From: Acidobacteriaceae bacterium
GTDB lineage: Bacteria > Acidobacteriota > Terriglobia > Terriglobales > Acidobacteriaceae
Direction: 5' to 3'
NCBI GenBank assembly: GCA_035933805.1
Contig: DASYYO010000279.1
Location: 233-64,232 of the forward strand
DNA: 64,000 nt
Positions 4,277-61,370 of this stretch are shown one piece after another (position 1 is the first letter of the stretch; each line of letters opens with the position of its first letter). The translations under genes and the position numbers were made by a program. The notes below the pieces were generated by a model that was not told the origin of the DNA, did not search any database, and saw nothing but the letters and a program-made list of their open reading frames with translations.

Positions 4277-4461
4277 AAGGCGATTGTACGAGGGTTGTAC
4301 CGGCCTGCACTTCCCCTGCACTTCCTATGGATGCAGCAGACGCTTTCTGCAGCTTCGGTTTCGGTACAAGTTTGGAAAGAATGAGAGAATACAGGGATAT
4401 GCAGAAGTTCGGAGCCGGGTGCTAGCAGCCTGGCTTGAATTGCCGCCCCGTTGCTTGCCAA

Positions 4462-9179: not shown

Positions 9180-9612
9180 AAGCAGGTGGGCCGGACGGTC
9201 GCTGCCCGGGCGCTCGCGCGTTCCGGGGAGAGGAAAGTCCGAACTCCGCAGGACAGCGTGCCGGATAACGTCCGGGATTTGAGCGTCAAGGCTCAAAGAC
9301 GGCCAGTGCCACAGAGAAGATACCGCCTCGGCTTCTTCGGGAGCCGCGGTAAGGGTGAAAAGGTGCGGTAAGAGCGCACCGCGCCGGCTGTAAAGCCGGT
9401 GGCAGGGTAAACCCCACGCGGAGCAAGACCAAATAGGGAGGGAATCCGACGGCCTGACCCGGGCCGCGGATGCGTGCCGGTCCGGTGCGCCAACCCGGGT
9501 TCCCGCTTCGGCGGGTGGGAAACCTCCGGGTAGGTCGCTTGAGCGGCGCAGCGATGCGCCGCCTAGAGGAATGATCGTCCACGACAGAATTCGGCTTACA
9601 GGCCCTCTTGCA
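9180..9612 (+). ncRNA. rnpB: RNase P RNA, bacterial type A
   Basis: Contains GAGAGGAAAGTCCGAAC, GGTAAGGGTGAAAAGGTGCGGTAAGAGCGCACCG and ACAGAATTCGGCTTACAGGCC near the 3' end. The P1 helix pairs GCAGGTGGGCC (9182-) with GGCCCTCTTGC (9601-9611). Ends are accurate to about 5 nt. Track ORFs 9286..9696(-) and 9293..9493(-) lie inside it and are spurious. Confidence 0.9.
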
Positions 9613-9617
9613 AACGC

Positions 9618-9722: not shown

Positions 9723-10949
9723 ATGGGATTCCTCGAAGGCATCAAGATCGCGCTGCAGTCGCTGTGGGCCAACAAGCTGCGCTCCTTCCTTACGCTGCTG
9801 GGAGTGATGATCGGCGTTGCGGCCGTCATCATGGTGATCACGCTGGTGAACGGCGCCAACAAGTTCGTGGCCACCAAGGTCTACGGCTATGGAGCGGACG
9901 TGTTTACCGCGTCCAAGCAGCCGGCGGTGGTGTTCAGCGACGCCGAGTACACGAAATATCAGAAGCGCAAGGATCTGAAGATCGACGACTACCGGGACGT
10001 AGCGGCGAAGTGCCTGCACTGCGCCGCTACCGGCGCGATGGCCAACGTCACCGGCAAGGTGGTGTACGAGAACCACTCGAGCACCGATACGGATATCCGC
10101 GGGTGGACCTGGTCGATGCCGCCCATCTACAACATGAACATCGAGCGGGGGCGGGGATTCGTGCCGATCGACGATGAGCGCCACAGCCATGTGGCCATCA
10201 TCGGCGCCGACATCGTGGACAACCAGATGGGCGGGGAAGACCCAATCGGCAAGGAGATCCGCGTGGATGGCGAGCACTACCGGGTGATCGGGGTCGGAGA
10301 GCGAAAGGGCAAGACGCTTGGCCAGAGCCAGGACAACTGGGTGGCCGTGCCGCTGACCACTTTTCTGAATGAGTACGGCTCCAATCGCAGCCTGACGATC
10401 TATGGGAAGGCCAACGGGGTTGGCGATCCGCTGGAGCTGGCTTCAGGCGAGATGCGAACCATCCTGCGCGGACGCCGCCATGACGCTCCCGGCGCAGAGG
10501 ACAGTTTTTCGATCGATACAAATGCCACCTTCGTCGGGATATGGCAGAGCATTAGTTCCAGCTTCTCGGCGGTGTTTATCTCGCTGGCTGCGATCTCCCT
10601 GGTGATTGGCGGCATCGTGATCATGAACATCATGCTGGTAAGCGTTACGGAGCGGACGCGGGAGATCGGTGTACGCAAGGCCCTGGGAGCGCGGCGGAGA
10701 GACCTCATGCTGCAGTTCCTGATCGAATCGGCGACGATGGCGCTGATCGGCGGCCTCATCGGAGTGCTGGGCGGGGTCGCCTTTGCCAAGATCATTACGC
10801 TGGTGGTCGGGTTTCCTTCCGACATCCAGGCATGGCCGGTGCTGCTGGGTCTGTTGATGGCCACGGCGGTGGGCGTCTTCTTCGGCGTGTATCCGGCGCG
10901 CAAGGCGGCGATGCTCGATCCGATTGTGGCGCTGCGGTCCGAGATCTAG
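9723..10949 (+). CDS. ABC transporter permease, MacB/FtsX family
   Basis: N-terminal LQSLWANKLRSFLTLLGVMIGVAAVI, a large periplasmic domain, and a C-terminal FtsX motif (MLVSVTERTREIGVRKALGARRRD). Confidence 0.85.
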   Translation: MGFLEGIKIALQSLWANKLRSFLTLLGVMIGVAAVIMVITLVNGANKFVATKVYGYGADVFTASKQPAVVFSDAEYTKYQKRKDLKIDDYRDVAAKCLHCAATGAMANVTGKVVYENHSSTDTDIRGWTWSMPPIYNMNIERGRGFVPIDDERHSHVAIIGADIVDNQMGGEDPIGKEIRVDGEHYRVIGVGERKGKTLGQSQDNWVAVPLTTFLNEYGSNRSLTIYGKANGVGDPLELASGEMRTILRGRRHDAPGAEDSFSIDTNATFVGIWQSISSSFSAVFISLAAISLVIGGIVIMNIMLVSVTERTREIGVRKALGARRRDLMLQFLIESATMALIGGLIGVLGGVAFAKIITLVVGFPSDIQAWPVLLGLLMATAVGVFFGVYPARKAAMLDPIVALRSEI

Positions 10950-10980
10950 ACAGGGAGCCGCGAAGGCGCCTGGAGATGCG

Positions 10981-12240
10981 ATGAAGCTGGGGGACACAAA
11001 AGAACCGATCCGCATGGCAATGGATACGCTGCGCTCGAACAAGCTGCGCTCCGGCCTCACCATGCTGGGCATCATGATCGGCGTCACCACGGTGATCCTG
11101 ATCTCCTCGGTGATCAACGGGCTGACGGGCAATGTCGATTCGCTGATCCAGTCCCTGGGGTCGAATGTCTATTGGGTCTTCCGCTTTATCCCGTTCGGAA
11201 TGCGGCCCACCACGGAGATGCTGACCAGAAAGCAGTTGACCTATGACGACGCGGCCGCCATGCGGACGCTGCCTCATGTGGTCGCCGTGGACCCCTCCCA
11301 GCAATACCGGACGGCGACCGGCCATGTGGGAGATTTCTCCGTGAAGTACCAGGGCCGCAAGGTGCAGAACACGCTTCTCGAGGGCGACTCAGAGGAGCAG
11401 CCCAAGGTTTACGATCTGGATCTGCGGGAGGGGCGCTTTTTCTCCGAGGAGGAGGCGCGCCGGCGAGCCAATGTCGCGGTTCTGGGAAGTGACACCGCGG
11501 ATGAGCTTTTTGGCGATCAGCCGGCCGTCGGAAAAGAGGTGGATATCGGCGGGGAGATATTCACGGTGATCGGGGTTCTGCAGAAGCAGAAACAGGTCTT
11601 CGGCGGGGGCAAAAATCCCGCTGACAACTCCGCCCATATGCCGCTGTTTACCTTTCGCAAGCTGCATCCCGAGATCCTCGACTATTGGATCAGCGTGAAA
11701 TATGACGATGCGAAGAACAAGCTGGCCGTGGAAGACGAGCTGCGCGAGCTGCTGCGCCGGAGGCGAAAACTCCGCGCCGACCAGCCCGACAACTTCGCGA
11801 TCTTTACCGCGGATGCATTGCTCGATCTGTGGAACTCTTTAACCAGCGGACTCTTTATCTTTCTGGTCGCGGTTTCGAGTGTAGGCCTGATGGTCGGCGG
11901 CGTCGGCGTCATGAACATTATGCTGGTCAGCGTGACGGAGCGTACCCGGGAGATCGGCATCCGCAAAGCCGTGGGGGCGACGAAGAGGAATATTCTTTTC
12001 CAGTTTACGGTGGAGGCGGTCACGCTCTGCGCGCTGGGAGGGCTGATCGGGATTCTGGCCGGCGGCGCGCTCACCCTGGCGGTGAAGCTGATTGTGGGGA
12101 CGGTCCTGCCGGCGCAGATGTCGATTGCCTGGTCCGTGATTGCCTTTACCATCTCCTGCGCGATCGGCCTGCTTTTCGGCATCTATCCCGCATGGAAGGC
12201 GGCGACGCTCGACCCCATCGAGGCTCTTCGCCACGAATAG
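10981..12240 (+). CDS. ABC transporter permease, MacB/FtsX family (paralogue of the preceding gene)
   Basis: Lies in ORF 10924..12240; the likely start is ATG 10981 (MKLGDTKEPIRMAMDTLRSNKLRSGLTMLGIMIGV). C-terminal MLVSVTERTREIGIRKAVGATKRN. Confidence 0.85.
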   Translation: MKLGDTKEPIRMAMDTLRSNKLRSGLTMLGIMIGVTTVILISSVINGLTGNVDSLIQSLGSNVYWVFRFIPFGMRPTTEMLTRKQLTYDDAAAMRTLPHVVAVDPSQQYRTATGHVGDFSVKYQGRKVQNTLLEGDSEEQPKVYDLDLREGRFFSEEEARRRANVAVLGSDTADELFGDQPAVGKEVDIGGEIFTVIGVLQKQKQVFGGGKNPADNSAHMPLFTFRKLHPEILDYWISVKYDDAKNKLAVEDELRELLRRRRKLRADQPDNFAIFTADALLDLWNSLTSGLFIFLVAVSSVGLMVGGVGVMNIMLVSVTERTREIGIRKAVGATKRNILFQFTVEAVTLCALGGLIGILAGGALTLAVKLIVGTVLPAQMSIAWSVIAFTISCAIGLLFGIYPAWKAATLDPIEALRHE

Positions 12241-20725: not shown

Positions 20726-21595
20726 ATGGCGCAGATCTTTGACCGCAGCTCGAACGCGCTTGCCCGCATGAGCTTGGTCCTGACAGGGTTGATCGTCATC
20801 GCTCTGGGAGTAACGTTGGACCAGTTGCAGCGTTCTCCGTGGGTGACCAGGCAAGGACAGCGCGCCGACCAGCCGGTGCCATTCAGCCACAAGCACCATG
20901 TAACAGGTCTAGGACTCCAGTGCCAGTACTGCCACACCTCGGTGGAGAAGTCCGGCTATGCGGGAATTCCACCGACCAAGACCTGCATGAATTGCCATGC
21001 GCAGATCTGGACCAACGCCGCTCTGCTGCAGCCGGTGAGAACGAGCTGGGCCACGGGAGAATCGATCCCCTGGATCAAAGTGCACGACCTGCCGGATTTT
21101 GTGTACTTCAATCATGAAATTCACGTGAACAAGGGCATCGGGTGTTCCTCCTGCCACGGCCGCGTCGATCTGATGCCGTTGATGTATGCGGAGAATACGC
21201 TGCAGATGGAGTGGTGCCTGAATTGCCATCGCGATCCGGGCAAGAATCTTCGGCCCACATCCGAGATTTACAACATGGCATGGGAAGGTCCTTCGCGGGA
21301 CAAGCCGGTGTGGTGCGGCACGGCCGGAACGAAGGACGGGGTGCCGACGGCGCAGACGGTGGATTGTACGACCACTGATCCGACGCAGACCGGAGCCCAG
21401 GTCGCCTCGCTCGACATGCTGCCCCGAGGCTTCAATGGGCAGGTGAGCGCCAGCGATGCGCCTGGGATGGCGGTTCCAGCGGCGCTCCACTATGCCAAAT
21501 TCACCGATCAAGACTCGCTGGGCAAATTCCTGGTGCAGCAGTACCAGATACGCACTCCCCAGGAGTTGAGCAGCTGCGAGACATGCCACCGATGA
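20726..21595 (+). CDS. actA: Alternative Complex III subunit ActA, pentahaem cytochrome c
   Basis: Five CxxCH motifs (CQYCH, CMNCH, CSSCH, CLNCH, CETCH), an N-terminal TM anchor, and first position in the act cluster. Confidence 0.85.
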   Translation: MAQIFDRSSNALARMSLVLTGLIVIALGVTLDQLQRSPWVTRQGQRADQPVPFSHKHHVTGLGLQCQYCHTSVEKSGYAGIPPTKTCMNCHAQIWTNAALLQPVRTSWATGESIPWIKVHDLPDFVYFNHEIHVNKGIGCSSCHGRVDLMPLMYAENTLQMEWCLNCHRDPGKNLRPTSEIYNMAWEGPSRDKPVWCGTAGTKDGVPTAQTVDCTTTDPTQTGAQVASLDMLPRGFNGQVSASDAPGMAVPAALHYAKFTDQDSLGKFLVQQYQIRTPQELSSCETCHR

Positions 21596-24500
21596 GAGAG
21601 ACACGCGAGAGCGCGGCCCCCGCGGCCAAGACGCACGATCAGCCGCTCAACCTGCAGACGCAAACACCGGACAATAAGGCGATTATGTCAAATCAAAGGA
21701 GCACGGGCGGCAGCGACACGGTTACAATTTCGCCGGCTGCCGGCATGACGCTCACGCTCGAAGAGGCCCGGGCCAGGCTCGCTGGAAAGACAGGCAAGAA
21801 GTATTGGCGGAGCGTAGATGAGCTGGCGGATACGCCGGCATTTCGCCAGGCGCTTGAGCGGGAGTTTCCCTCGCAGGCATCGGAGTGGATTGATCCTGTC
21901 TCCCGGCGCGGATTTTTGAAGGTGATGGGCGCCTCCCTGGCGCTGGCCGGGCTCTCCGGATGCACCAAGCAGCCGGACGAGACGATCTATCCATATGTGA
22001 AGCAGCCGGAGGACCTGGTTCTGGGCCGGCCGGTGTACTTCGCCACTGCATTTCCGTTTCCCACCGGCGCAGTTCCGCTGCTGGTCAAGAGCGATGCCTA
22101 CCGCCCGATCAAGGTCGACGGCAATCCCGAACATCCTTATAACCAAGGAGGCTCGGACCCGATCAGCCAGGGTACTCTGCTCGATCTTTATGACCCGGAC
22201 CGGTCCCAGCGGGTGCTCTACCGCGGCGAGCCGCGGGAGTGGCCTGCATTTCTTGCGGCATTCCGCGCCATGGCGTCGGATAAGAAGGCGAACGGAGGAA
22301 GCGGCCTTTACATACTGAGCGATACCGTGACGTCGCCTACCCTGGCGGCGCAGTGGAAGGCGGCGCAGCAGACCTATCCGAATGCGAAATGGATCCAGTG
22401 GGACCCGGTGAACCGCGATTCGGCGTACGCGGCATCGAAGACGGCATTCGGCGACTACTACGATGCGCAGTACCGGCTCGCCGAGGCCGACGTGATCGTT
22501 TCGCTCGACGCCGATTTCCTCTCTGGCATTACGCATCCCGGTTTCCTGCGGCTGGCGGCAGATTACGCGAAGCGGCGCAGAGTTGGCGCGGATGGCAGCT
22601 TTGCAATGAACCGGCTGTATGCGGTTGAGAGCACGTCGACGACTACGGGCTTCAAGGCCGAGCACCGGTTGGCGCTGAAGGCGAGCGAGGTGCAGAACTT
22701 CGCCGCGGCCCTGGCCGCCGCAGTGGGCGCGCAGTCCGGTGGCGCGGCCTGGGGAAGCGGCGCGCAGCAGAAATTTCTCTCCGCCCTGGCAGCGGACCTG
22801 AAGGCGAACGGCGGCAAGTGCGTGGTGATCGCGGGCGAGCAACAGCCGCCGGCCGTGCACCTGGCTGCGATTGCCATCAATCAGGCTCTGGGCAACGTGG
22901 GCAAAACCGTGGTTTACACCGAGACGGTCAATCCGATGCCGTCCATCCAGGGAGAAGACCTGCGCACCCTGGTTGGCGACATGCAGGGCGGCAAGGTGGA
23001 CTGGCTGGTGATCCTCAATGCCAATCCGGTCTATACCGCGCCTGTGGACCTGCGCTTTGAAGATGCGCTGGGCAAGGTGAAGACGATCGTCCACCTGGGA
23101 TCGCACTTCGACGAGACGGCCGCGGCTGCAGAGTGGCACGTCAACGGCGCGCATTATCTGGAGATGTGGTCGGATGCGCGTGCCTACGACGGGACCTTGA
23201 GCGTGGTTCAGCCGATGATCGATCCGCTCTACGGCGGAAAGTCGGCGCATGAGGTGATCCAGTCGCTGCTTCCCGATCCGGACACGTCGGCCTACCAGGC
23301 GGTGCGCAACAACTGGAGCGCGACCCAGGGAAGCGCAAACCAGGGAGGCGGTCAGGATCAGGCATGGCGCAAGGTTCTGCATGACGGCTTCGTTGCGGGG
23401 AGCGCCTTCAGTCCGAAGACGGTTTCAGCCAAAGTGGGGGCGCTGCCGATGGCTGCGGCGAGCGGAGTGGACGGCACGGTCGAGGTTGTGTTCCGGCCCG
23501 ACCCGAACATCTACGATGGCCGTTATGCCAACGTGGGCTGGCTGCAGGAGATCCCCAAGCCTGTGACCAACATGTCCTGGGACAACGCGGCCCTGATGAG
23601 CTACGCCACGCTGGGCAAATACGGCCTGGCCGAGCAGGACGTGGTGACGATTGAGTCAAACGGCAACAAGGTGCTGGCGCCGGTCTATGCGATCCCCGGC
23701 CACCCGGATGACTCCGTCACGGTCTACCTCGGGTACGGCCGCAGAACGGTGGGCCGCGTGGGCGCGGGCCTGGGCTTCAACGCCTATGCGATCCGGACGT
23801 CGGGATCGCTGCTCTTCGCTCCAGGGGCGAAGCTGAGCAAGACCGGGCAGACCTACGAGTTTGCCGTCACCAAGAGCCACTATACGGATCATCGTTCCAA
23901 GTGGGCGGGCGGCGACGGCACCGGCACGCATTCGCTCGAAGGGAATGAAGCGATGACGCGCGGGATCATCCGCTACGCCACCCTGGAGGAGTTCCAGCGG
24001 GACCCGAACTTCGCTCACGAGGAGACGCCGGCCCCCGAAGATCCGGAGCCGACCGAGTCGATGTTCAGCAACTGGCGTTATGACAAGAACGCCTGGGCGA
24101 TGGCGATCGACATGAACTCCTGCGTCGGCTGCAACGCCTGCATCGTGAGCTGCTATGCGGAGAACAACATTGCGGTCGTGGGCAAGCATAATACCCAGAC
24201 CGGGCGCATCATGCAGTGGATCCGCATCGATACGTATTTCGAAGGGGACCTGGAGGCGCCGCGGGCTCACTTCCAGCCGATGACCTGCCAGCAGTGCGAG
24301 AACGCGCCCTGCGAGCAGGTATGCCCGGTAGGGGCGACGGTGCACACGCCTGAGGGCCTGAACGTGATGGTTTACAACCGCTGCGTGGGAACCCGGTACT
24401 GCTCCAACAACTGCCCGTACAAGGTGCGGCGGTTCAACTTCCTGCTCTACTCCGACTACGAGACCGAGAGTCTCAAACTGATGCGCAACCCGGATGTGAC

Positions 24501-24822
24501 GGTGCGCAGCCGCGGAGTCATGGAGAAATGCAGCTACTGCTCGCAGAGAATCATGGCTGCCAAGATTGCGGCGGATAAGGAAAACCGCGCGGTCCGGGAC
24601 GGCGAGATTGTCACCGCGTGCCAGCAGGCGTGCCCGACCGGAGCGATTGTCTTCGGCAATGTCAATGACAAGGCGAGCCGGGTCTATAAGTTGAAATCGC
24701 AGCAGCGCAATTACGGCGTGCTCGCCGATTTGAATACGCGCCCACGGACGACCTACATTGCGGGCGTCATCAACCCCAATCCGGAATTGGCCGAGGCGCA
24801 GCACGCGCCGGAAAATAGCTGA
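21583..24822 (+). CDS. actB: Alternative Complex III subunit ActB (molybdopterin-oxidoreductase-like domain fused to a 4Fe-4S ferredoxin domain)
   Basis: Tat/lipobox leader SRRGFLKVMGASLALAGLSGC. C-terminal Fe-S Cys clusters CVGCNACIVSC, CQQCENAPCEQVCP, CVGTRYCSNNCP and CSYC...CQQACP. The start is uncertain: ATG 21592 overlaps the actA TGA as ATGA, and 21685 is also possible. Confidence 0.9.
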   Translation: MPPMRETRESAAPAAKTHDQPLNLQTQTPDNKAIMSNQRSTGGSDTVTISPAAGMTLTLEEARARLAGKTGKKYWRSVDELADTPAFRQALEREFPSQASEWIDPVSRRGFLKVMGASLALAGLSGCTKQPDETIYPYVKQPEDLVLGRPVYFATAFPFPTGAVPLLVKSDAYRPIKVDGNPEHPYNQGGSDPISQGTLLDLYDPDRSQRVLYRGEPREWPAFLAAFRAMASDKKANGGSGLYILSDTVTSPTLAAQWKAAQQTYPNAKWIQWDPVNRDSAYAASKTAFGDYYDAQYRLAEADVIVSLDADFLSGITHPGFLRLAADYAKRRRVGADGSFAMNRLYAVESTSTTTGFKAEHRLALKASEVQNFAAALAAAVGAQSGGAAWGSGAQQKFLSALAADLKANGGKCVVIAGEQQPPAVHLAAIAINQALGNVGKTVVYTETVNPMPSIQGEDLRTLVGDMQGGKVDWLVILNANPVYTAPVDLRFEDALGKVKTIVHLGSHFDETAAAAEWHVNGAHYLEMWSDARAYDGTLSVVQPMIDPLYGGKSAHEVIQSLLPDPDTSAYQAVRNNWSATQGSANQGGGQDQAWRKVLHDGFVAGSAFSPKTVSAKVGALPMAAASGVDGTVEVVFRPDPNIYDGRYANVGWLQEIPKPVTNMSWDNAALMSYATLGKYGLAEQDVVTIESNGNKVLAPVYAIPGHPDDSVTVYLGYGRRTVGRVGAGLGFNAYAIRTSGSLLFAPGAKLSKTGQTYEFAVTKSHYTDHRSKWAGGDGTGTHSLEGNEAMTRGIIRYATLEEFQRDPNFAHEETPAPEDPEPTESMFSNWRYDKNAWAMAIDMNSCVGCNACIVSCYAENNIAVVGKHNTQTGRIMQWIRIDTYFEGDLEAPRAHFQPMTCQQCENAPCEQVCPVGATVHTPEGLNVMVYNRCVGTRYCSNNCPYKVRRFNFLLYSDYETESLKLMRNPDVTVRSRGVMEKCSYCSQRIMAAKIAADKENRAVRDGEIVTACQQACPTGAIVFGNVNDKASRVYKLKSQQRNYGVLADLNTRPRTTYIAGVINPNPELAEAQHAPENS

Positions 24823-24837
24823 AAGGTTTAGCGGAGC

Positions 24838-26259
24838 ATGGCGACCAAACCAGAATTACCGGTAAACGATCCGATGCTGGATCCGAAGACGGGCGAGTAT
24901 GTTGTCATCGCGCCCGGGCATACCTTCAAGTCGGTTACCGAAGAGGTCTCCCGCATTGTTCTCACCGGGCATACCCCGCTCGGGTGGTACTTCGGCTTCA
25001 TGGTTGCCGGCAGCATCACGCTCATGCTGCTCACCGCAGTGACCTGGCTGTTCCTGAGAGGCGTGGGAATCTGGGGCCTGGACATTCCGGTCGGCTGGGG
25101 ATTCGCGATCATCAACTTTGTCTGGTGGATCGGAATCGGCCACGCCGGCACGCTGATCTCGGCCATTCTCCTGCTGTTCAAGCAGCAGTGGAGAAACTCG
25201 ATCAACCGCTTCGCAGAGGCGATGACGATCTTCGCCGTGATCTGCGCCGGCATGTTCCCGCTGATCCACGTGGGCCGTCCATGGCTGGGCTACTGGCTGT
25301 TCCCCTATCCCAGCACCATGAACGTCTGGCCGCAGTTCCGCTCCCCGCTGCTGTGGGATGTCTTTGCGGTCTCAACCTACGCGACGATCTCAGTGGTCTT
25401 CTGGTATATCGGCCTGATTCCCGACCTGGGCACGATGCGCGACCGGGCGCAGACAAAGTTTGCGCAGTTCACCTACGGCATGCTGTCGCTCGGCTGGCGC
25501 GGTTCGGCCCGGCACTGGGCGCAGTATGAGACGGCTTCGCTGCTCCTGGCTGGCTTGGCGACGCCGCTGGTGCTCTCTGTGCACACGGTCATCAGCTTCG
25601 ACTTCGCCGTGGCGGTCCTGCCGGGCTGGCACACGACGATCTTTCCGCCCTACTTCGTCGCCGGCGCGATCTACTCCGGCTTCGCGATGGTGATCACGCT
25701 TGCCATCCCGATCCGGAAGTTCTACCACCTGGAAGACCTGATCACCATCCGCCACATCGACAACATGGGCAAGGTGATGCTGGCTACCGGCCTCATCGTG
25801 GCCTATGGCTATTCGATGGAAGTCTTCATGGCCTGGTTCTCGGCGAGCCACTTTGAATTCTTCATGATGTGGAACCGTATGTTCGGCCCCATGGGCTGGG
25901 CGTACTGGGTGCTGATTACCTGCAACATCGCTCTTCCGCAACTGTTGTGGATCCGAAAGCTGCGGGTCAGCCCGGGCAAGATGTTCATCATGTCCCTGAT
26001 TATCAATACGGGCATGTGGTTCGAGCGGTTTGTGATCGTCGTCACCAGCCTGTACCGCGACTTTCTGCCCTCGTCCTGGGGCACCTACCGGGCCACGCGG
26101 TGGGACTATGCGACCTTTGTCGGCACGCTGGGATTGTTCACGGCGCTGTTCTTCCTATTCATCCGGTTCCTGCCCATGATTCCGATGTCCGAGCTGAGAA
26201 TGATGCTGCCTCAGGCCAAGGTCAGAGTGGAACCAGAACCTCTGGAGGCAGGTGACTGA
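24838..26259 (+). CDS. actC: Alternative Complex III subunit ActC (NrfD/PsrC-like quinol-interacting membrane subunit)
   Basis: 473-aa polytopic membrane protein in the canonical position after actB. NrfD-like GIWGLDIPVGWGFAIINFVWWIGIGHAGTLISA. Confidence 0.9.
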   Translation: MATKPELPVNDPMLDPKTGEYVVIAPGHTFKSVTEEVSRIVLTGHTPLGWYFGFMVAGSITLMLLTAVTWLFLRGVGIWGLDIPVGWGFAIINFVWWIGIGHAGTLISAILLLFKQQWRNSINRFAEAMTIFAVICAGMFPLIHVGRPWLGYWLFPYPSTMNVWPQFRSPLLWDVFAVSTYATISVVFWYIGLIPDLGTMRDRAQTKFAQFTYGMLSLGWRGSARHWAQYETASLLLAGLATPLVLSVHTVISFDFAVAVLPGWHTTIFPPYFVAGAIYSGFAMVITLAIPIRKFYHLEDLITIRHIDNMGKVMLATGLIVAYGYSMEVFMAWFSASHFEFFMMWNRMFGPMGWAYWVLITCNIALPQLLWIRKLRVSPGKMFIMSLIINTGMWFERFVIVVTSLYRDFLPSSWGTYRATRWDYATFVGTLGLFTALFFLFIRFLPMIPMSELRMMLPQAKVRVEPEPLEAGD

Positions 26260-26801
26260 TGCCTGTGCGTGAAGGAACCTACGGATTGCTGGCTGAGTTC
26301 GATACGCCAACCGGACTGGTGGTGGCGGCCAAGGCTGCCTATGACTCAGGCTGGCGGCGAATGGACTGTTACACGCCGTACCCGGTCGAAGAGGCGGCGG
26401 AGGCGATCGGCTTCCATCGCAACTATGTGCCGCTGGTCTGCCTGGTCGGAGGCCTGATCGGCCTGGGAGCCATGTTTTTGATGGAGACCTGGATTGCGGT
26501 CTTCGCCTATCCGCTCAATATCGCCGGGCGGCCGCTGTTCTCCTGGCCGGCGTTCATCGTTCCCGCCTATGAGTGGACCATTCTCTGGGCAGGCCTCTCG
26601 GCCGCCTTTGGAATGCTGGCGCTGTGCGGCCTGCCGTCGCTTTATCATCCGGTCTTCAATGCGCCGAACTTCCGCAACGGCGCCAGTACCGACAAGTTTT
26701 TCCTTTGCCTGGAGGCGACCGACCCGAAGTTCTCGGTCGAGGAGTCCCGCGCATTCCTGGAGGAGTTCCAGCCGGCATCCGTTGTGGAGGTGGAGTATTA
26801 A
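26259..26801 (+). CDS. actD: Alternative Complex III subunit ActD (DUF3341)
   Basis: Its start overlaps the actC stop (TGATG). N-terminal GLLAEFDTPTGLVVAAKAAYDSGWRRMDCYTPYPV followed by two TM helices, as in ActD. Confidence 0.8.
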   Translation: MPVREGTYGLLAEFDTPTGLVVAAKAAYDSGWRRMDCYTPYPVEEAAEAIGFHRNYVPLVCLVGGLIGLGAMFLMETWIAVFAYPLNIAGRPLFSWPAFIVPAYEWTILWAGLSAAFGMLALCGLPSLYHPVFNAPNFRNGASTDKFFLCLEATDPKFSVEESRAFLEEFQPASVVEVEY

Positions 26802-26805
26802 GGGC

Positions 26806-27630
26806 ATGAGAGGAATTCGGCAGGAAGGCTCCGGGGTTCGCTCTGCCGCGAGACGCCAGACCTGGATCCTGGGTGCGGGGATGACGGCAATGCTGCTGCT
26901 GTCTGCAGGCTGCCGCCAGGACATGCAGGATGAGCCCAAGTTTGTCCCCCAGCGGGGAACCACCTTCTTTTCCGACAACCGGTCGGTCCGCCCGCAGGTG
27001 GAGCACACGGTGGCTCGCGGTCAGCTTGATCAGGACAGCTACTTCAATACCGGCCTCGAGGGCGGCAAGGAAGCCGATATGATGCCGTTCCCGGTGACCA
27101 TGCAGGTGCTGGCGCGGGGACAGGAGCGCTTCAATATTTATTGCACGCCCTGCCATTCGCGGGTGGGCAACGGCGCCGGGATGATCGTGCAGCGGGGCTA
27201 CAAGCCGGCGGCGAACTTCCATGACGCGCGGCATCTCGCCCAGCCGGTGAGCCACTTTTTCTACGTGATGACGAATGGCTTCGGCGCCATGCCGGACTAC
27301 TCGGCGCAGTTGCCGCCTGCGGATCGCTGGGCGGTGGCCGCTTATATCCGCGCGCTGCAGATGAGCCAGGATGCGGGGACCAGCAGCGTGCCGGCGGGTG
27401 TGCAGGTGCAGGACCTTAAAGATATCGCGCAGCAGGAAGGATACCCGGAGAGCTTCGCCGGGCCCTGGGCGCTGCCGCAGGCTACCCATGCGGTGGCCCA
27501 GCCGGCGGACCCGAGCCAGGGAAATCCCGGGATGGCTCCTGCCAACGAGAACGCTCCGCCGGTCTGGAATGCCGCGCCGGTCAACGCTGAGACGAACGGC
27601 AAGCCCGCGCCGCGCCGCGGCGTGAAATAG
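26806..27630 (+). CDS. actE: Alternative Complex III subunit ActE, monohaem cytochrome c lipoprotein
   Basis: Internal ATG of ORF 26494..27630, 5 nt after the actD stop. Lipobox LLLSAGC and a single CTPCH haem site with MPDY. Confidence 0.8.
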   Translation: MRGIRQEGSGVRSAARRQTWILGAGMTAMLLLSAGCRQDMQDEPKFVPQRGTTFFSDNRSVRPQVEHTVARGQLDQDSYFNTGLEGGKEADMMPFPVTMQVLARGQERFNIYCTPCHSRVGNGAGMIVQRGYKPAANFHDARHLAQPVSHFFYVMTNGFGAMPDYSAQLPPADRWAVAAYIRALQMSQDAGTSSVPAGVQVQDLKDIAQQEGYPESFAGPWALPQATHAVAQPADPSQGNPGMAPANENAPPVWNAAPVNAETNGKPAPRRGVK

Positions 27631-27646
27631 GATTCAGGAAGAAATC

Positions 27647-28936
27647 ATGGCTCACGAGCATCACGCAAATTCGCTTCCCGCGGACCTGAATGCCCCCGCC
27701 TTCGTCGACGGCTGGCGCAAACGGGCTCTGCTGGTAGGCGCAGTGTTCGCTGCCCTCTCGGCCGTGCTTGCGTTTCTCGCGGCAACGGTCGATCACGACG
27801 GCATCCAGCATCTGCTGCGCTCCTACCTGATGGGGTATGCCATCTCCTGGGGCTTCGCCCTGGGCGGGCTGGCGCTTCTGATGGTGCAGTACCTGTCGGG
27901 CGGCAAGTGGGGACTGGTCGTCCGGCGTCCCCTGGAAGCGATGTCGCGCACCCTGCCCATGGTGCTGGTGATGTTTCTGCCGATCGGGCTGGGCATGAAG
28001 CAGCTGTATCTCTGGGCAAGAGTGGCCAACCCGGCGGAGGCGCTGAAGGCGCACCTGATCACCCGCGACCAGGCCAACGCCATCATGGTGAAGCATCCCA
28101 TGCTGAGCATTCCCAGCGTATGGGTGCAAACCCTGATCTGCTTCGGCATCTGGATTGGAATGATGCTCCTGCTCAATCGCTGGTCGCTTGAGCGTGACGC
28201 CGATCCGGAGCGCCGGGTGCGTTTCTGGCAGGTCAAGTTCGAAAATCTGAGCGGCATTGGCGTGGTGATTTACGCCATCACCATGACGGTCTGCGCGATC
28301 GACTGGATCATGTCGCTGAACGTCTCCTGGTACTCGACGATGTACGGCTTCCTGTTCCTGGTGGGGCAGGGGTATGGAGTGCTCGCGCTCGCCATCATGA
28401 CCACCATCCGGCTGTCCAAGGCGGACCCGGTAAAGAGCATCCTGCGCCCGGTGGAGCAGCACGATCTGGGCAAGCTGGCGTTTGCCTTTGTGATGCTGAA
28501 CATCTACATCGCCTTCTCGCAATTCCTGATTATCTGGTCGGGAAATCTTCCCGATGAGATTCCCTGGTACCTGGACCGGATCCGCGGGGGATGGGGCGTG
28601 GTGGGGACTCTGGACTTTATCTTCCACTGGGTGCTGCCCTTCACCCTGCTGCTTTCCCGCGACCTGAAGCGCAACAAGGAGCGGCTGGTGCTGGTGTGCA
28701 AGATCATGATCTTCGCCCGCTGCTGGGATATGTTCTGGCTCATCGAGCCTAACTTCCCGGATGCGGCGCGCAACCTGCACTTCAGCTTTGGGATCCTGGA
28801 ATACGCAACTGTACCGGTAGCGGTGATTTCGTTCTGGATGTGGCTCTACTTCGGTCAACTGCAGAAGCGGCCGCTGATCCAGACGAACGATCCGCACCTC
28901 GATGAGATTTTGGAGGCCGAGCATGCACACGCCTGA
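27647..28936 (+). CDS. actF: Alternative Complex III subunit ActF (ActC-like membrane subunit)
   Basis: 429-aa polytopic membrane protein in the canonical position. Confidence 0.8.
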   Translation: MAHEHHANSLPADLNAPAFVDGWRKRALLVGAVFAALSAVLAFLAATVDHDGIQHLLRSYLMGYAISWGFALGGLALLMVQYLSGGKWGLVVRRPLEAMSRTLPMVLVMFLPIGLGMKQLYLWARVANPAEALKAHLITRDQANAIMVKHPMLSIPSVWVQTLICFGIWIGMMLLLNRWSLERDADPERRVRFWQVKFENLSGIGVVIYAITMTVCAIDWIMSLNVSWYSTMYGFLFLVGQGYGVLALAIMTTIRLSKADPVKSILRPVEQHDLGKLAFAFVMLNIYIAFSQFLIIWSGNLPDEIPWYLDRIRGGWGVVGTLDFIFHWVLPFTLLLSRDLKRNKERLVLVCKIMIFARCWDMFWLIEPNFPDAARNLHFSFGILEYATVPVAVISFWMWLYFGQLQKRPLIQTNDPHLDEILEAEHAHA

Positions 28937-29558
28937 GCCGCAGCGGCCGGATGTCTCCGCCGGGTTTGAAAAGACAGATGTCAACGTCAAGGGCATTCTC
29001 GTCTTCCTGGTTTCGCTTGGAGTCTTTGTCGGCGTCTTCTTCGTGTTCTGCTTCGGCATGGGGAAGGTGATCAATACCGCGATTACCAAGCATGACGGAC
29101 CGCCGAACCAGTGGAACCAGATCGAGTCCAAGCCTTCGCATGGGCTGGAGACTCTGACGTCGAACGCGACGGTCGAGCAGCAGCAGCTGCAGGAGATGAC
29201 GCAACGGTTTCCTTCTCCGCGGCTGCAGATGGACGATGGCGACCAGGACGTAGCGGACCTCCACGCGCGGGAGGATCTCCTGCTCGACCACTACAGCTGG
29301 GTCGACCGCAAGCAGGGCAAGGTGCGGATTCCGATTGAGCGGGCCATGGAGTTGATCGCCAAGTCGGGGCTCCCAGTGGCGCCGGCAGCGCAGACGCAGC
29401 CACTGATGGCCGGAGATAAAGCCCCGGTTGTGCCGATGCCCCTGACGAATGGGTTCGCCCGGACCGGGCACGAGCAAGAAGTTCTGGAGACACTCGAGCA
29501 ACAGCGGGAGCGCAGTGAAAAGCGGACCGACCAGGCTGCTCTGCAGGCGAGCCACTAG
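28923..29558 (+). CDS. uncharacterised single-pass membrane protein between the ACIII and oxidase genes
   Basis: ATG 28923 overlaps the actF end by 14 nt. Translation MHTPEPQRPDVSAGFEKTDVNVKGILVFLVSLGVFVGVFFVFCFGMG shows one TM helix followed by a roughly 150-aa soluble domain. I recognise no motif. Confidence 0.55.
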   Translation: MHTPEPQRPDVSAGFEKTDVNVKGILVFLVSLGVFVGVFFVFCFGMGKVINTAITKHDGPPNQWNQIESKPSHGLETLTSNATVEQQQLQEMTQRFPSPRLQMDDGDQDVADLHAREDLLLDHYSWVDRKQGKVRIPIERAMELIAKSGLPVAPAAQTQPLMAGDKAPVVPMPLTNGFARTGHEQEVLETLEQQRERSEKRTDQAALQASH

Positions 29559-29761
29559 GCTTCGTCTGGTGAAAAGGAAATGGCGGTGGCGGCAAGATCC
29601 CCAATCCGCATGCGCTCGGGTGGATGTCCGAGAGGACGGCAAAGGGTATTCTTGAGAGTGGCCTCCTTCGGCATTTTGGCGTGAGTCCAACGCCTGCCAG
29701 GCGCCAAAACGGAGAGAAGGCGGAACCAATCTCATAGGGTCCCGCCAACGGCAAAGATTTT

Positions 29762-30649
29762 ATGTTGGGAATCGCGAAAATACGGAAAGCGATGCGCGGA
29801 GCGCTAAGCGGCCTCTGCCTCCTCGGTGTGCTGGCGGCGATGACTGCCCATGGGCAGGTTGCCGGCTATGGAGAGAAGTCCATGGGCGACCCGGCGCAGG
29901 ACCATCTTCCGGATTTTCTGCAGAAGGTCAGGATCGACCAGCGGCTGAACCAGCAGCTGCCATTGCAGGCGCCGTTTGTGGATTCAGCCGGCAAGCCGGT
30001 CAAGCTGGGAGATTACTTTGGCAAGCGGCCGGTCATCCTGGCCCTGGTCTATTACCAATGCCAGATTCTCTGCTCCGAGGAGCTGAACGGCCTGGTGGGA
30101 GCCCTGGAGATGGTGCACCTGACGCCCGGCAAAGACTTCGAGATCGTGGTCGCGAGCATTGACCCGTCTGAGGGGCCGGCGCTGGCGCGAGCCAAGAAGG
30201 CAGTCTATGTGAAGCGCTACGGCAGGATGGAGACGGCAAATGGCTGGCACTTTCTGACCGGTCCCGAGTCTTCGATCCAGGCGCTGACGCAGGCCGTGGG
30301 GTTTGGCTACATGAGAGTTGCCGGACCGGATGGCAAGCTCAATCAATTCGCGCACACCAGTTCGCTCGAGATTGTCACGCCGGAAGGACGGCTCGCGCAG
30401 TACTACATGGGCGTGGAGTACTCCCCGAAGGATCTGATGCTGGGCCTGGTGGAAGCGTCTCATCACAAGATCGGCACGCCGGTCGACAACATCATGACGT
30501 ATTGCTACCGTTACGATCCGAAGCTGAACCGGCATAGCCTGGTTGTCGCCCGGATCGTGCAGTTGGGCTGCCTGTTGACCATGATCGGACTGGGCAGCTT
30601 CATGGTGGTGAATTTTCGCCGCGACATAACGCAAGCCGGTAAAGGGTAA
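29762..30649 (+). CDS. SCO1/SenC-family copper chaperone
   Basis: Signal peptide, thioredoxin fold with CxxxC (YYQCQILC), a conserved downstream His (FAHTSS) and a C-terminal TM segment. Sits directly upstream of ctaC. Confidence 0.85.
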   Translation: MLGIAKIRKAMRGALSGLCLLGVLAAMTAHGQVAGYGEKSMGDPAQDHLPDFLQKVRIDQRLNQQLPLQAPFVDSAGKPVKLGDYFGKRPVILALVYYQCQILCSEELNGLVGALEMVHLTPGKDFEIVVASIDPSEGPALARAKKAVYVKRYGRMETANGWHFLTGPESSIQALTQAVGFGYMRVAGPDGKLNQFAHTSSLEIVTPEGRLAQYYMGVEYSPKDLMLGLVEASHHKIGTPVDNIMTYCYRYDPKLNRHSLVVARIVQLGCLLTMIGLGSFMVVNFRRDITQAGKG

Positions 30650-30651
30650 CG

Positions 30652-31764
30652 ATGCATTCGATAAGTCCAGTTTTGTGGCAGTTTCTCGTAAAGTGGCTGA
30701 CCAACTTTGCCCTTTTCCCGCCAGAAGCCTCGTCCATCTCGGGCGACATGGACGCTTTCTACTTTTTTCTGCTGTTGATCTCGGCCATCGGCCTCATCGC
30801 CGTAGCGATCCTGATTTTCGGGTTTTCCATTGCGTACCGCAAGGAAAAGAATCCGGTGGCGACGCAGATCGAGGGTTCCACGCTGCTTGAGGCGACGTGG
30901 ACGATCATCCCGCTGGCCCTGTTCATGGTCTGCTTCGTCTGGGGCGCGCTGCTTTACTTCCGCATCTACAACCCGCCGACCAACGCGATGAATATCTACA
31001 TCGTGGGCAAACAGTGGATGTGGAAGGCGGAGCATCCCGGCGGCCAGCACGAGATCGATGCGCTGCATATCCCGATCAACCGGCCGATTCAGCTCACCAT
31101 GATCTCCCAGGACGTCTTCCACAGCTTCTCGATCCCGGCTTTCCGGGTGAAGCGCGAAGTGATCCCGGGCCGCTACACGACGGTCTGGTTTGAGGCTACA
31201 CAGACCGGCACATTCCATCTTTTCTGCACCCAGTATTGCGGCACGAATCACTCGCAGATGATCGGCGACATCGTGGCCATGAGCCCGGACGATTACCAGG
31301 CATGGATCGCGGGTAGCACCAGCGGGGTATCCCTGGCGCAGAACGGCGAGCGCCTGTTCGCCAGCCTGGGCTGCAACTCCTGCCACTCGGGCGCGGCCAC
31401 GGCCCGCGGTCCGAATCTGGCGCAGGTCTACGGCTCCAGGCTGCAGCTTACCGACGGTTCGCAGATCACCGCGGATGACGCGTTCCTGCGGGAGGCGATT
31501 CTCAATCCGTCGACGCGGGTGACGGCCGGGTACGCGCCGATCATGCCAACGTATCAAGGCCAGGTCAGTGAAGAGGGACTGATTGACCTGGTGGAGTACA
31601 TCAAGAATCTCAATTCCAACTACCGCATTCAGCAGACACTGGCATCGAGGGAACTCCCCCCGGCGCCGGCCGGCTCCTCCAACTCGGGATCCAGTTCGTC
31701 ATCCAGGGATGAAAGCTCCGCTGCGCGGTCAGGCAGAGTGGCGCCTTCGGCGTCAGGACGGTGA
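30652..31764 (+). CDS. ctaC: cytochrome c oxidase subunit II with fused C-terminal cytochrome c (caa3 type)
   Basis: CuA site HSFSIP...[12 protein letters not shown] and a C-terminal CNSCH haem c domain. Confidence 0.9.
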
Positions 31765-31768
31765 AACC

Positions 31769-33430
31769 ATGAGCACAATCCTCAGTCTTCCGAATCAAGA
31801 AACAGCAACCCTGCCGAAGACCAGCTACCTGAACAGCGAGTACGGGCTGAAGAGCTGGCTGCTCACCGGTGACCACAAGCGGATCGCCATGCTGTATCTG
31901 ATGTCGATAACGTTTTTCTTTTTCATCGGGGGAGCATTCGCCGGCCTGATTCGCCTGGAGCTGCTCACTCCCATGCCGGACCTGGTGGCGTCGGACACCT
32001 ATAACAAGCTCTTCAGCATGCACGGCATCGTGATGATCTTTCTGTTCCTGGTGCCGTCAGTTCCGGCAACCATCGGGAACTTTCTGATGCCGATCATGGT
32101 TGGGGCCAAGGATCTGGCGTTTCCGAAGATCAATCTGCTGAGCTGGTATCTGTACATGATCGCGGGCTGCATCATCCTCTGGGCGATGATGAACGGCGGC
32201 GTCGATACCGGGTGGACCTTCACCACTCCCCTCAGCACCCACTATCTCAACACGCATGTGCTGACGACGGCGGTGGGGGTGTTCGTCGCCGGCTTCAGCT
32301 CTATCTTCACCGGTCTGAACTTCATCGTCACCATCCACCGGATGCGCTGCCCGGGAATGAGCTGGTTCCGTCTGCCGCTCTTCGTGTGGTCGCATTATGC
32401 GGCCTCGATCCTGATGGTTCTCGGGACCCCTGTTCTGGCGATCGCGCTGGTGCTCATCGCCCTGGAGCGCGTCTTCGGGATTGGCGTCTTCGATCCCTCC
32501 AAGGGCGGAGACCCGCTCCTCTTCCAGCATCTCTTCTGGTTCTACTCCCACCCTGCCGTGTACATCATGATTCTGCCGGGCATGGGGGTCATCTCCGAAG
32601 TAGTCAGCACCTTCTCCCGCAAGCGGGTCTTCGGATACACCGCGGTGGCCTTCTCTTCGGTGGCGATCGCGGTCTTCGGATTCTTCGTCTGGGAGCACCA
32701 CATGTTCATCATGGGTGTGTCGAACTACTCGGCGCTGGTCTTCTCACTGCTGACGATGCTGGTCGCGGTGCCCTCTGCCATCAAGATCTTCAACTGGTCG
32801 GCAACGCTCTACAAAGGGTCCATTACCTTTGAGACGCCGATGCTTTATGCCTTCGGATTCATGGGTCTGTTCACCATTGGCGGGTTGACCGGGGTCTTCC
32901 TCGGTTCGCTGGGGATGGACATTCACCTGACCGAGACCTACTTCATCGTCGCCCACTTTCACTTCGTGATGGTCGGGGGAATGCTGATGGCGTATCTGGC
33001 CGGCGTGCACTTCTGGTGGCCGAAGATGACCGGCAGAATGTACCCCGAGTCCATGTCGAAGCTGGCCGCGATGACGACCTTCATCGGGTTCATCCTCACC
33101 TTCTTTCCGCAGTTCATCCTGGGTTACCTGGGAATGCCGCGCCGCTATCACGCGTATCCGCCGGAGTTCCAGGTGCTGAACGTTCTGTCGACGGCGGGCG
33201 CGACGGTGCTGGGGATCGGCTACCTGCTCCCCATGATCTACATGCCCTGGTCACTGAAGTACGGTAAGATCGCCGGTAGCAACCCATGGCAGGCAACCGG
33301 CCTGGAGTGGCAGATCGAATCGCCGCCGCTGACGGAAAACTTTATCGAGATCCCGGTCATGGATCACGAAGCATACGACTACGATTGGCTTGCGCACAAG
33401 CACGAATACGAGGTAACGACTGTTGGATAG
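31769..33430 (+). CDS. ctaD: cytochrome c oxidase subunit I
   Basis: Internal ATG 31769 ([10 protein letters not shown]) of ORF 31583..33430, 5 nt after the ctaC stop. Contains [25 protein letters not shown] and [10 protein letters not shown]. Confidence 0.95.
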
Positions 33431-34100
33431 CCAAGCGATTGCAAATGGCACGATAGCTCCACACGAGACAGCGGAAGCCCACGAACATCCTTCTTACCTG
33501 CGCCACCACTTCGTCACGGTAGAGCAGCAGCAGGAGACGGCGAGCTTCGGGATGTGGCTGTTCCTGCTGACCGAAATCATGTTTTTCGGCGGCATGTTCA
33601 TGGCCTACCTGCTCTACCGGAACTGGTATTACGACGCCTTCGTGGCGGGCAGCAACACGCTGAGCATCACGCTGGGCACCACCAATACCGTCGTGCTGAT
33701 CCTCTCCAGCTTCACGATGGCGATGGGTGTCTACTCGGCGGAGACCCGCAACCGCAAGGGCCTCCTGACGTCGCTGGGCCTGACGATCGTTCTGGGTCTG
33801 GTCTTCCTCGGAATCAAATCCGTGGAATACCACGACAAATATGTGGAGCACCATATCCCGGGCGCGAGCTTCAGCGTGGAAGATTTTGTCCATCCGGCAG
33901 ACAAGCGTGACATCGCGCTCTCCCCGGATATGGCGCAGCATGCGCAGATTTACTTCTTCCTCTACTTTGCCCTGACAGGCATGCACGCGCTGCACATGAT
34001 CATCGGCATCAGCATCCTGTTTGTCCTCTTCTACCAGGCCTATCATGGGGCGTACACCAACGGGCATACTTCCACCATCGACAATTTCGGGCTGTACTGA
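33423..34100 (+). CDS. ctaE: cytochrome c oxidase subunit III, ends at an in-frame TGA that replaces a conserved Trp
   Basis: Cox3-type helices ([29 protein letters not shown]). The ORF stops after ...DNFGLY although the conserved [11 protein letters not shown] continues in frame (see feature 34098..34172). Confidence 0.85.
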
Positions 34101-34172
34101 CACTTTGTCGATATTGTGTGGATCTTCCTTTTCCCGCTGCTCTATCTGATCAGCCGTCACCCCTTGAAGTAG
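34098..34172 (+). other. post-stop in-frame extension encoding the conserved Cox3 C-terminus (candidate UGA readthrough, recent nonsense mutation or sequencing error)
   Basis: TGA(34098-34100) CAC TTT GTC GAT ATT GTG TGG ATC TTC CTT TTC ... reads [23 protein letters not shown], then TAG at 34170-34172. It matches the Cox3 motif YWHFVDVVWLFLF with the stop in place of W. Confidence 0.8.
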
Positions 34173-34185
34173 AAGGAAAGCAGCT

Positions 34186-34494
34186 ATGTCGACTCCTACC
34201 GAGCACGAGCATCACATTGTCGGGCCCAAGGTCTACCTGATGATCCTCGCGGCGCTTCTGATCTTTACTGCGACGACGACCGGTGTGGCCTTCCTCGACC
34301 TGGGCATCTTCAATCCTGTCGTGGCGCTGGCGATCGCCTGCATCAAGGCGGTTCTGGTGATCCTGTTTTTCATGCACCTGCGCTATAGCTCCAAGGTGAT
34401 GAAGCTCACGGTCGCGGCCGGCTTCTTTACCTTTCTGGTGCTGATCACCATGACTCTCACCGACTATATGAGCCGGACCTGGGGCCTCTGGTAG
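34186..34494 (+). CDS. ctaF: cytochrome c oxidase subunit IV (prokaryotic COX4 family)
   Basis: 102 aa with three TM helices. N-terminal HEHHIVGPKVYLMILAALLIFTATT is typical of the family. AAGGAAAG Shine-Dalgarno upstream. Confidence 0.75.
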   Translation: MSTPTEHEHHIVGPKVYLMILAALLIFTATTTGVAFLDLGIFNPVVALAIACIKAVLVILFFMHLRYSSKVMKLTVAAGFFTFLVLITMTLTDYMSRTWGLW

Positions 34495-38814: not shown

Positions 38815-38890
38815 GCCGACGTAGCTCAGTTGGTAGAGCAGCTGATTCGTAATCAGCAGGTCATCGGTTCAAGTCCGATCGTCGGCTCCA
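38815..38890 (+). tRNA. tRNA-Thr (anticodon CGU), CCA encoded
   Basis: Acceptor GCCGACG/CGTCGGC, D arm TAGCTCAGTTGGTAGAGC, anticodon stem GCTGA/TCAGC with loop TTCGTAA, T arm ATCGG-TTCAAGT-CCGAT, discriminator T, then CCA. Confidence 0.93.
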
Positions 38891-49926: not shown

Positions 49927-50442
49927 CTAAGGAGTTCCGGGGCCGCTCTGGCGGGAGCTGCGCTCGAGCGCCTGAATGAGAGAACCGAGAGTGCGCTCGG
50001 AGCCGCCTTCGGGCCGGACTGCCGGAGCGGGAGGCGGCGGAGCGACCGTGGTGCGCTGTGCGCTGCGCGCTTCATTGGCTGAGACAGCGACCGGACCAAA
50101 GGGAACGGAGCCGCTCAGGGCGGCTGGGGGCTTGCCTGCCGTCTCTGAGCCGGAAGATGCAACGTGCCGGCGTTCGATGCGGCGCTTGGGCGGCACGCGC
50201 TTCACCTGCAGGGGCTCGGCGGGCAGCGGCGCGGGAGCTGCCGCGGCAGCCTGAACCTGCGTGCCGGCTGGGGCTGGCTTAACTCTCTTCGAGGAGCTCT
50301 TCCTGACCGCGGAGGTCGTCTTCCTGGTCTTAGTGTTCGCCGTCTTCTTGAAATCTCCCGGAGCACCCGCGAGAATCTCACGCGCGCGCTGGAGGAGGCC
50401 TATCTCAGCGTCAATTTGAGCAATGATCTCTGTCCGTAACAT
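49927..50442 (-). CDS. hypothetical Ala/Pro/Lys-rich protein
   Basis: Lies in ORF 49927..50526; the likely start is MLRTEIIAQIDAEIGLLQRAREILAG. Low complexity with no motif recognised. It is co-oriented downstream of the RDD gene. Confidence 0.35.
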   Translation of the reverse strand: MLRTEIIAQIDAEIGLLQRAREILAGAPGDFKKTANTKTRKTTSAVRKSSSKRVKPAPAGTQVQAAAAAPAPLPAEPLQVKRVPPKRRIERRHVASSGSETAGKPPAALSGSVPFGPVAVSANEARSAQRTTVAPPPPAPAVRPEGGSERTLGSLIQALERSSRQSGPGTP

Positions 50443-50575
50443 TTTCAAACATTCTACCGTTATCGCGGGCCCATTGCTCCAATAGATTCGGGCAGGGAGC
50501 CGCCGGGAAGGCGCGAAGGAAGACATTCCCTCGCGGAGCTGGCGATGGAGTCAGGCCGGTACGCGCTTTTTCGCC

Positions 50576-61228: not shown

Positions 61229-61370
61229 AAGGATTCGCGGGTGCGGCAAGGCCAGGATTTTCTTGAAGGAAGATCCGTATCCAGCCGCGCCGCGCGGGTC
61301 TATATTTATCAGGAAATTTGGCTTGAGCCGCCGAGCGGCCGTTTTCGTTCCTCGTGTTCAGGAGAAGAAC

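Follow-up and report, generated by a model that had tools for sequence, protein, structure and literature searches.

A private in-frame TGA at the invariant tryptophan codon of ctaE in an Acidobacteriaceae metagenome-assembled genome

Results

Organization of the ctaE locus

The stretch of DNA analysed here (64,000 nucleotides; "the window" or "64 kb" below) is part of a 68,264-bp contig of a third-party (TPA) Acidobacteriaceae metagenome-assembled genome (MAG), and its proteins are deposited as HEV2274680-HEV2274702. Positions 20726-34494 form a single same-strand gene cluster, which runs from actA-F through a 218-aa ORF (28902-29558, no Pfam match) and SCO1/SenC to ctaCDEF and whose layout resembles known operons of alternative complex III (ACIII)-oxidase supercomplexes. 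The ACIII genes follow the order multihaem cytochrome, Fe-S subunit, NrfD-like ActC, ActD, cytochrome c subunit and ActF. The features of the cluster are as follows (window coordinates):

20726..30649, plus strand: alternative complex III genes, the 218-aa ORF and SCO1/SenC, all intact
30652..31764, plus strand: ctaC (COX2 with a C-terminal cytochrome c domain, caa3 type), with a genuine TGA end
31583..33430, plus strand: ctaD (COX1) in its longest ORF form, with a stop codon that overlaps the ctaE TTG
33423-34172, plus strand: ctaE (cytochrome c oxidase subunit III; Pfam COX3), tail included
33423..34100, plus strand: ctaE as terminated in this assembly (225 codons and TGA; deposited as HEV2274700.1)
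34098..34100, plus strand: in-frame TGA in place of the invariant Trp226 codon; the private base is the A at 34100
34101..34172, plus strand: undecayed 23-codon ctaE tail and natural TAG stop, matching the C-terminal segment of solved Cox3 chains
34173..34180, plus strand: Shine-Dalgarno-like AAGGAAAG upstream of ctaF, read directly from the sequence
34186..34494, plus strand: ctaF (COX4_pro), starting at ATG 34186, intact; the exact protein is encoded in four other contigs

The genes ctaC, ctaD, ctaE and ctaF are contiguous on the plus strand, so that ctaE is found in an operon with the genes of subunits II, I and IV, and this order, downstream of ACIII and SCO1, agrees with an operon for an ACIII-linked caa3-type oxidase. 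Since alignments of ctaD with its orthologues begin near residue 56, the true start of this gene is probably further downstream than that of the longest ORF.

The ctaE frame opens at TTG 33423 and stops at TGA 34098-34100, and the deposited product, labelled "cytochrome c oxidase subunit 3", ends there. When the same frame is read past the TGA, 23 more codons follow before the TAG at 34170-34172, and then ctaF. With Trp restored at the TGA, CtaE is 249 aa long and matches Pfam COX3 above the curated threshold (E 2.8e-19, 70.4 bits against a cutoff of 23.8); its identity to 248-aa Acidobacteriaceae Cox3 proteins is at most 87% at 100% coverage. The C-terminal (Y/F)WHF(V/L)D motif and the final helix do not, however, lie in one unbroken ORF here, since the assembly has TGA for the Trp of the motif. 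The original prediction had read the locus in just this way, with a TGA exactly at the motif Trp, a conserved 23-codon tail closed by TAG ahead of the ctaF Shine-Dalgarno sequence and ATG, and products of 225 aa (truncated) and 249 aa (full length), and our reading of the sequence agrees on each of these points.

The protein belongs to the five-helix Cox3/CtaE/CyoC family (PF00510), of which chain G of 6adq (mycobacterial CtaE from the CIII2CIV2 supercomplex) and chain C of 1fft (E. coli CyoC) are solved members with the same C-terminal motif. In E. coli CyoC the motif reads LFWHFLDVVW. Compared with the solved chains, the annotated product from the window lacks the 24 C-terminal residues; the 23-codon tail aligns to what is presumably their last membrane helix. 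A further difference from the solved five-helix Cox3 proteins is an insertion of ~26 residues between two conserved halves of CtaE (residues ~150-176, window positions 33870-33950). Homologues of CtaE are also ~248 aa long, against ~203-205 aa for the solved chains.

The tail was compared with the orthologues at two related MAG loci (MFD isolates; L001 and L002). All 23 amino acids are identical to those of L001, although 11 of the 23 codons differ, every one of them synonymously; against L002 there are nine synonymous codon differences and one non-synonymous difference. Identity of 23/23 residues in spite of 11 synonymous changes is far beyond chance, and the tail thus appears to have been under protein-level selection until very recently. 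An old, decaying ctaE pseudogene, already argued against in the original prediction, is ruled out by this ratio of 11 synonymous to 0 non-synonymous changes, by the restriction of the lesion to this one assembly and by the lack of a second lesion in the gene. Separate translation of the tail was also considered and rejected: the in-frame GTG at 34116 has no ribosome-binding site ahead of it and would yield a peptide of only 18 aa. No second cox3 paralogue that could serve as a backup was found within the 64-kb window.

The tryptophan codon in related genomes

We collected 80 related loci from contigs representing one genome per species. The codon at the position of the TGA is TGG in all 80, and the GLYWHFVD motif is invariant among them. 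A set of 133 proteins of Cox3 length (150-300 aa) was also fetched, and the motif is present in 131; the two exceptions are the product of the window itself and P0113, a protein from a short contig with an unrelated C-terminus. The same truncation was not seen in any other lineage among these 133 proteins or the loci fetched, and the TGA-bearing 9-mer TACTGACAC is absent from every fetched locus. Homologues carry Trp at the site of the stop, never Cys or Sec.

JGI metagenomes were scanned with N at the variable position. Two matches were retrieved, one on a contig of ERZ1756124 (L085; the ERZ1756124 contig also listed below) and one on a contig from another species, and both have TGG. A 63-aa JGI fragment (P0131) likewise has W at the site and is identical to the CtaE of the window at 61 of its 63 residues.

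Comparison with contigs of the same species

Contigs of the same species were found through the exact CtaF protein. There are four, and each has TGG at the site:

L081, NCBI GCA_036741595.1: TGG
L082, ENA ERZ1756124: TGG
L083, Logan SRR12347819: TGG
L084, ENA ERZ923683 / SRR1185960: TGG; the oldest of these contigs

They are 98.9-99.8% identical to the window. The first two are one base apart and may share one data set, so the four contigs represent three or four independent data sets. In three of the four, a single base is different from the window and the sequence is otherwise identical. Further contigs (L087-L092) were found through ActD, ActF and HpnI. Over ~19 kb of alignment with the short same-species contigs, no indels were detected, except for one 2-base gap relative to L084.

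The nearest strain is that of Logan SRR12347819 (L083 and L091), with 5 mismatches to the window over 5758 aligned bases. The differences fall into only two clusters, 29691/29706 and 34092/34100/34103, spanning 12-16 nt, and the second contains the base that makes the TGA. Such clustering suggests alternative micro-haplotypes or bubble paths more than it does scattered mutation. The window and SRR12347819 have the same third-position alleles at 27597 and 28222, so that the window stands for a real lineage of its own that carries natural variants.

All four contigs that enter ctaE from downstream, from MEGAHIT, SPAdes and Logan assemblies, start at 33981-34004, ~100 nt 5' of the TGA. The stretch coding for MHALHMIIG, at which these contigs break, has nearly identical nucleotides even in other species (L001, L002) and therefore serves as a branch point of the assembly graph. 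The exact Trp-restored 249-aa CtaE was absent from the protein collection searched, and no complete same-species ctaE was present in the collections searched; the absence of the protein follows from the fact that all same-species contigs break inside ctaE.

These alignments confine the TGA to a single assembly, at an age below ~0.1% sequence divergence. The original prediction had also envisaged relatives that share the TGA ahead of a decayed downstream frame; none was found, every relative aligned (the 80 species and the four same-species contigs) having TGG.

TGA as a stop codon in the window

TGA is the commonest stop among the listed ORFs of the window and ends ActB, ActC, ActF, ctaC, photolyase, epimerase and UDP-glucose dehydrogenase, among others. 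The positions of these stops can be compared with the ends of orthologues that terminate at TAA or TAG: the TGA ends of ActF and UDP-glucose dehydrogenase coincide with them exactly and that of photolyase to within 4 residues. The genes that follow begin within a few bases of the TGA stops. The GC content of the window is 61.7%.

We screened all six frames of the 64 kb for stops with coding-like base composition on both sides. The ctaE stop at 34098 was the only stop that passed with a coding continuation. The other coding-like match, at 6692, marks where MiaA ends naturally; the remaining five are accounted for by antisense shadows or by a short overlap with a convergent gene. That the assembly might be error-prone, with many genes broken, was considered as well but finds no support in this screen, in the ~37 window proteins that look intact by Pfam or in the near-absence of indels.

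Signals of recoding were also searched for. Folding of the 96-nt segment that starts just ahead of the stop and reaches ctaF was no more favourable than that of shuffled sequences (z = -0.12). An Rfam search over the window returned only RNase P RNA and a tRNA, and no recoding element; neither a tRNA-Sec nor a tRNA-Trp gene lies in the window, and no SECIS-like hairpin was found at the site. The base after the TGA is C, and the strains with TGG share the sequence downstream. The UGA-C context is said to be the weakest stop context in E. coli (reportedly described by Poole, Brown and Tate in 1995); being a property of a single base, it is no evidence of selection.

Origin of the in-frame TGA

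Taken together, the comparisons indicate that the TGA is a recent, non-conserved change that carries no recoding signals, in a genome that uses TGA as a normal stop. The explanation that we prefer, and to which we give about an even chance, is that it is an ordinary nonsense allele: very recently, and in this lineage alone, a single G-to-A transition would have changed the third base of the Trp226 codon (TGG to TGA). The A at 34100 would then be present in real DNA and not in the consensus alone. Its carrier would be the strain, or a sub-population, from which this one Acidobacteriaceae MAG was recovered. RF2 would terminate translation at UGA-C to give a 225-aa subunit III devoid of its 24 C-terminal residues (Trp226 and the 23-residue tail, expected to form the last membrane helix), and this truncated CtaE would probably be unstable, not stably assembled or non-functional. 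A few percent of ribosomes may insert Trp through near-cognate tRNA-Trp and so produce the wild-type protein; such a leak would be passive and unselected, generic to UGA codons rather than evolved at ctaE. The defect might be tolerated because the oxidase core of subunits I and II is able to function in the absence of subunit III, and because other terminal oxidases are usually at hand. Oxidases without subunit III turn over but become inactivated during catalysis, as is established for the Rhodobacter aa3 oxidase, and Acidobacteria usually possess other terminal oxidases. In that one transition creates a premature stop private to one lineage, ctaE of the window is like an ordinary nonsense pseudogene or a segregating loss-of-function allele; it is unlike the former in showing neither downstream decay nor a second lesion, and the TGA, if real at all, must therefore be extremely young.

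Purifying selection should quickly purge a stop at a residue that is invariant across the family, and the site itself lies in a stretch that is difficult to assemble, close to the contig breaks and inside the difference cluster 34092/34100/34103; consensus and bubble-path errors concentrate at contig breaks and variant clusters. There is a real possibility, which we would put somewhat short of even, that the DNA has TGG, that the gene is intact and that the A at 34100 arose from read errors, from a chimeric path through a strain bubble or from consensus polishing of a low-coverage metagenome. The source is indeed a TPA MAG and not an isolate, and in at least one other data set the coverage of the species was low, at 2.9-3.0 according to the SPAdes contig names. 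With three of the four same-species contigs the mismatch is one base in otherwise matching sequence, and compared with the nearest strain the site falls among three differences in 12 nt, ~100 nt away from a recurrent contig break. An invariant residue hit in front of a perfectly preserved tail has the look of an error in an intact gene. Against this, the rest of the assembly is clean, with the 2-base gap against L084 as the only indel, and no other broken gene was found in the 64 kb; a random single-read error, moreover, rarely enters a 68-kb contig, as short-read de Bruijn assemblers normally discard k-mers that occur a single time and follow the deeper path. The clean assembly, the intact genes and the single stop passing the screen make a random assembly error somewhat less likely and speak for a real allele, as do the synonymous-site variants that the window has in common with its sister strain. 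As a separate observation, the related loci L001 (~10386-11288) and L002 (3249-3950, 7371-8426) have fragmented orthologues of window genes (UDP-glucose dehydrogenase of 300 against 449 aa, ctaC of 233 against 370 aa, photolyase of 351 against 490 aa), which suggests frameshift errors in those assemblies; nothing in the window is comparable.

Explanations in which the UGA is read as an amino acid fare much worse. In functional readthrough, a near-cognate or permissive tRNA-Trp (e.g., one with a 4-bp anticodon stem) would keep UGA-C as a tuned source of a 225-aa/249-aa mix. The inserted Trp would restore wild-type CtaE exactly, in the weak UGA-C context noted above. In E. coli, tRNA-Trp is a known misreader of UGA, with a baseline leak of 2-4% in which Trp-tRNA-Trp competes with RF2 (PMC10570021), and tRNA-Trp variants with a 4-bp anticodon stem, which promote UGA reading, occur in diverse bacteria, although Acidobacteria are absent from the main text of that survey (PMC13092985). 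The resemblance of ctaE to the passive E. coli readthrough (PMC10570021) extends to the UGA-C context and to the residue inserted, which would be the ancestral Trp, yet no sign of selection is seen at ctaE: the stop is not conserved, as TGG stands in same-species contigs of up to 99.8% identity, in all 80 other species and in the additional JGI contig; no stimulatory structure or Rfam recoding element accompanies it; the 64 kb yielded no further in-frame TGA at a conserved position; TGA terminates many genes of the window; and the tRNA-Trp gene lies outside it. We therefore consider functional readthrough very unlikely, and the suggestion in the original prediction that readthrough yields two isoforms finds no support. 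Of the three options it had left, a base-call error and a recent mutation both gain from the finding that the TGA is private, whereas leaky UGA decoding as a feature of the gene loses, the codon not being conserved. An expression-attenuating "leaky nonsense" polymorphism of a core respiratory gene, in which a real allele would persist in a soil Acidobacteriaceae strain because an ordinary or permissive tRNA-Trp reads UGA-C as Trp often enough, strikes us as very unlikely as well. Reassignment of UGA to Trp or Gly (codes 4 or 25), or selenocysteine at the site, has next to no probability. In its favour there is only the fact that this UGA stands in frame in a conserved gene, as UGA stands at Trp positions in the reassigned codes of Mycoplasmatales, Ca. 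Zinderia and some Patescibacteriota (PMC13092985). Unlike in those codes, TGA is a regular and frequent stop here, and ctaE is the only such site found in the 64 kb, at a GC content that also speaks against reassignment; genome-wide reassignment is ruled out by the TGA ends that match those of orthologues and by the tight junctions behind TGA, and selenocysteine is opposed by the Trp of the homologues and by the lack of a SECIS-like hairpin, tRNA-Sec or Rfam match. Alternative decoding of UGA is thus effectively refuted, and the earlier view that the genetic code is not reassigned holds.

Whether a young nonsense allele, as we prefer, or a MAG consensus error, the TGA is nothing new, and the truncated protein is already public. 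A premature stop private to one MAG carries little biological weight, be it an error of the consensus or a routine loss-of-function allele of recent date. The entry HEV2274700.1 (225 aa) is to be treated as suspect, and in-frame stops at invariant residues in MAGs need confirmation at the level of reads before recoding is claimed. If the allele were real and common, it would offer a natural test of the UGA-C leak outside model species, but nothing suggests that it is common. A passive near-cognate leak at UGA-C is to be expected at any such nonsense codon and is not specific to ctaE.

Other features of the window

Four ORFs with coding-like composition have no Pfam match (E <= 1e-5): 54-1964, 4435-5541, 27647-28936 and 49927-50526. 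The third is at the position of ActF and is a "hypothetical protein" in the deposited record. The RNase P RNA at 9183-9614 is of the bacterial class A (273 bits), and the sole tRNA within the window is a tRNA-Thr(CGT) at 38815-38890. Two tandem genes of the enolase superfamily (MR_MLE) are located at 61149-63823. Upstream of this enolase-like pair, 57860-61228 encodes a 1122-aa protein with CarboxypepD_reg and outer-membrane beta-barrel domains, and the genes at 57860-63823 probably form a cluster for sugar-acid uptake and dehydration by a dehydratase.
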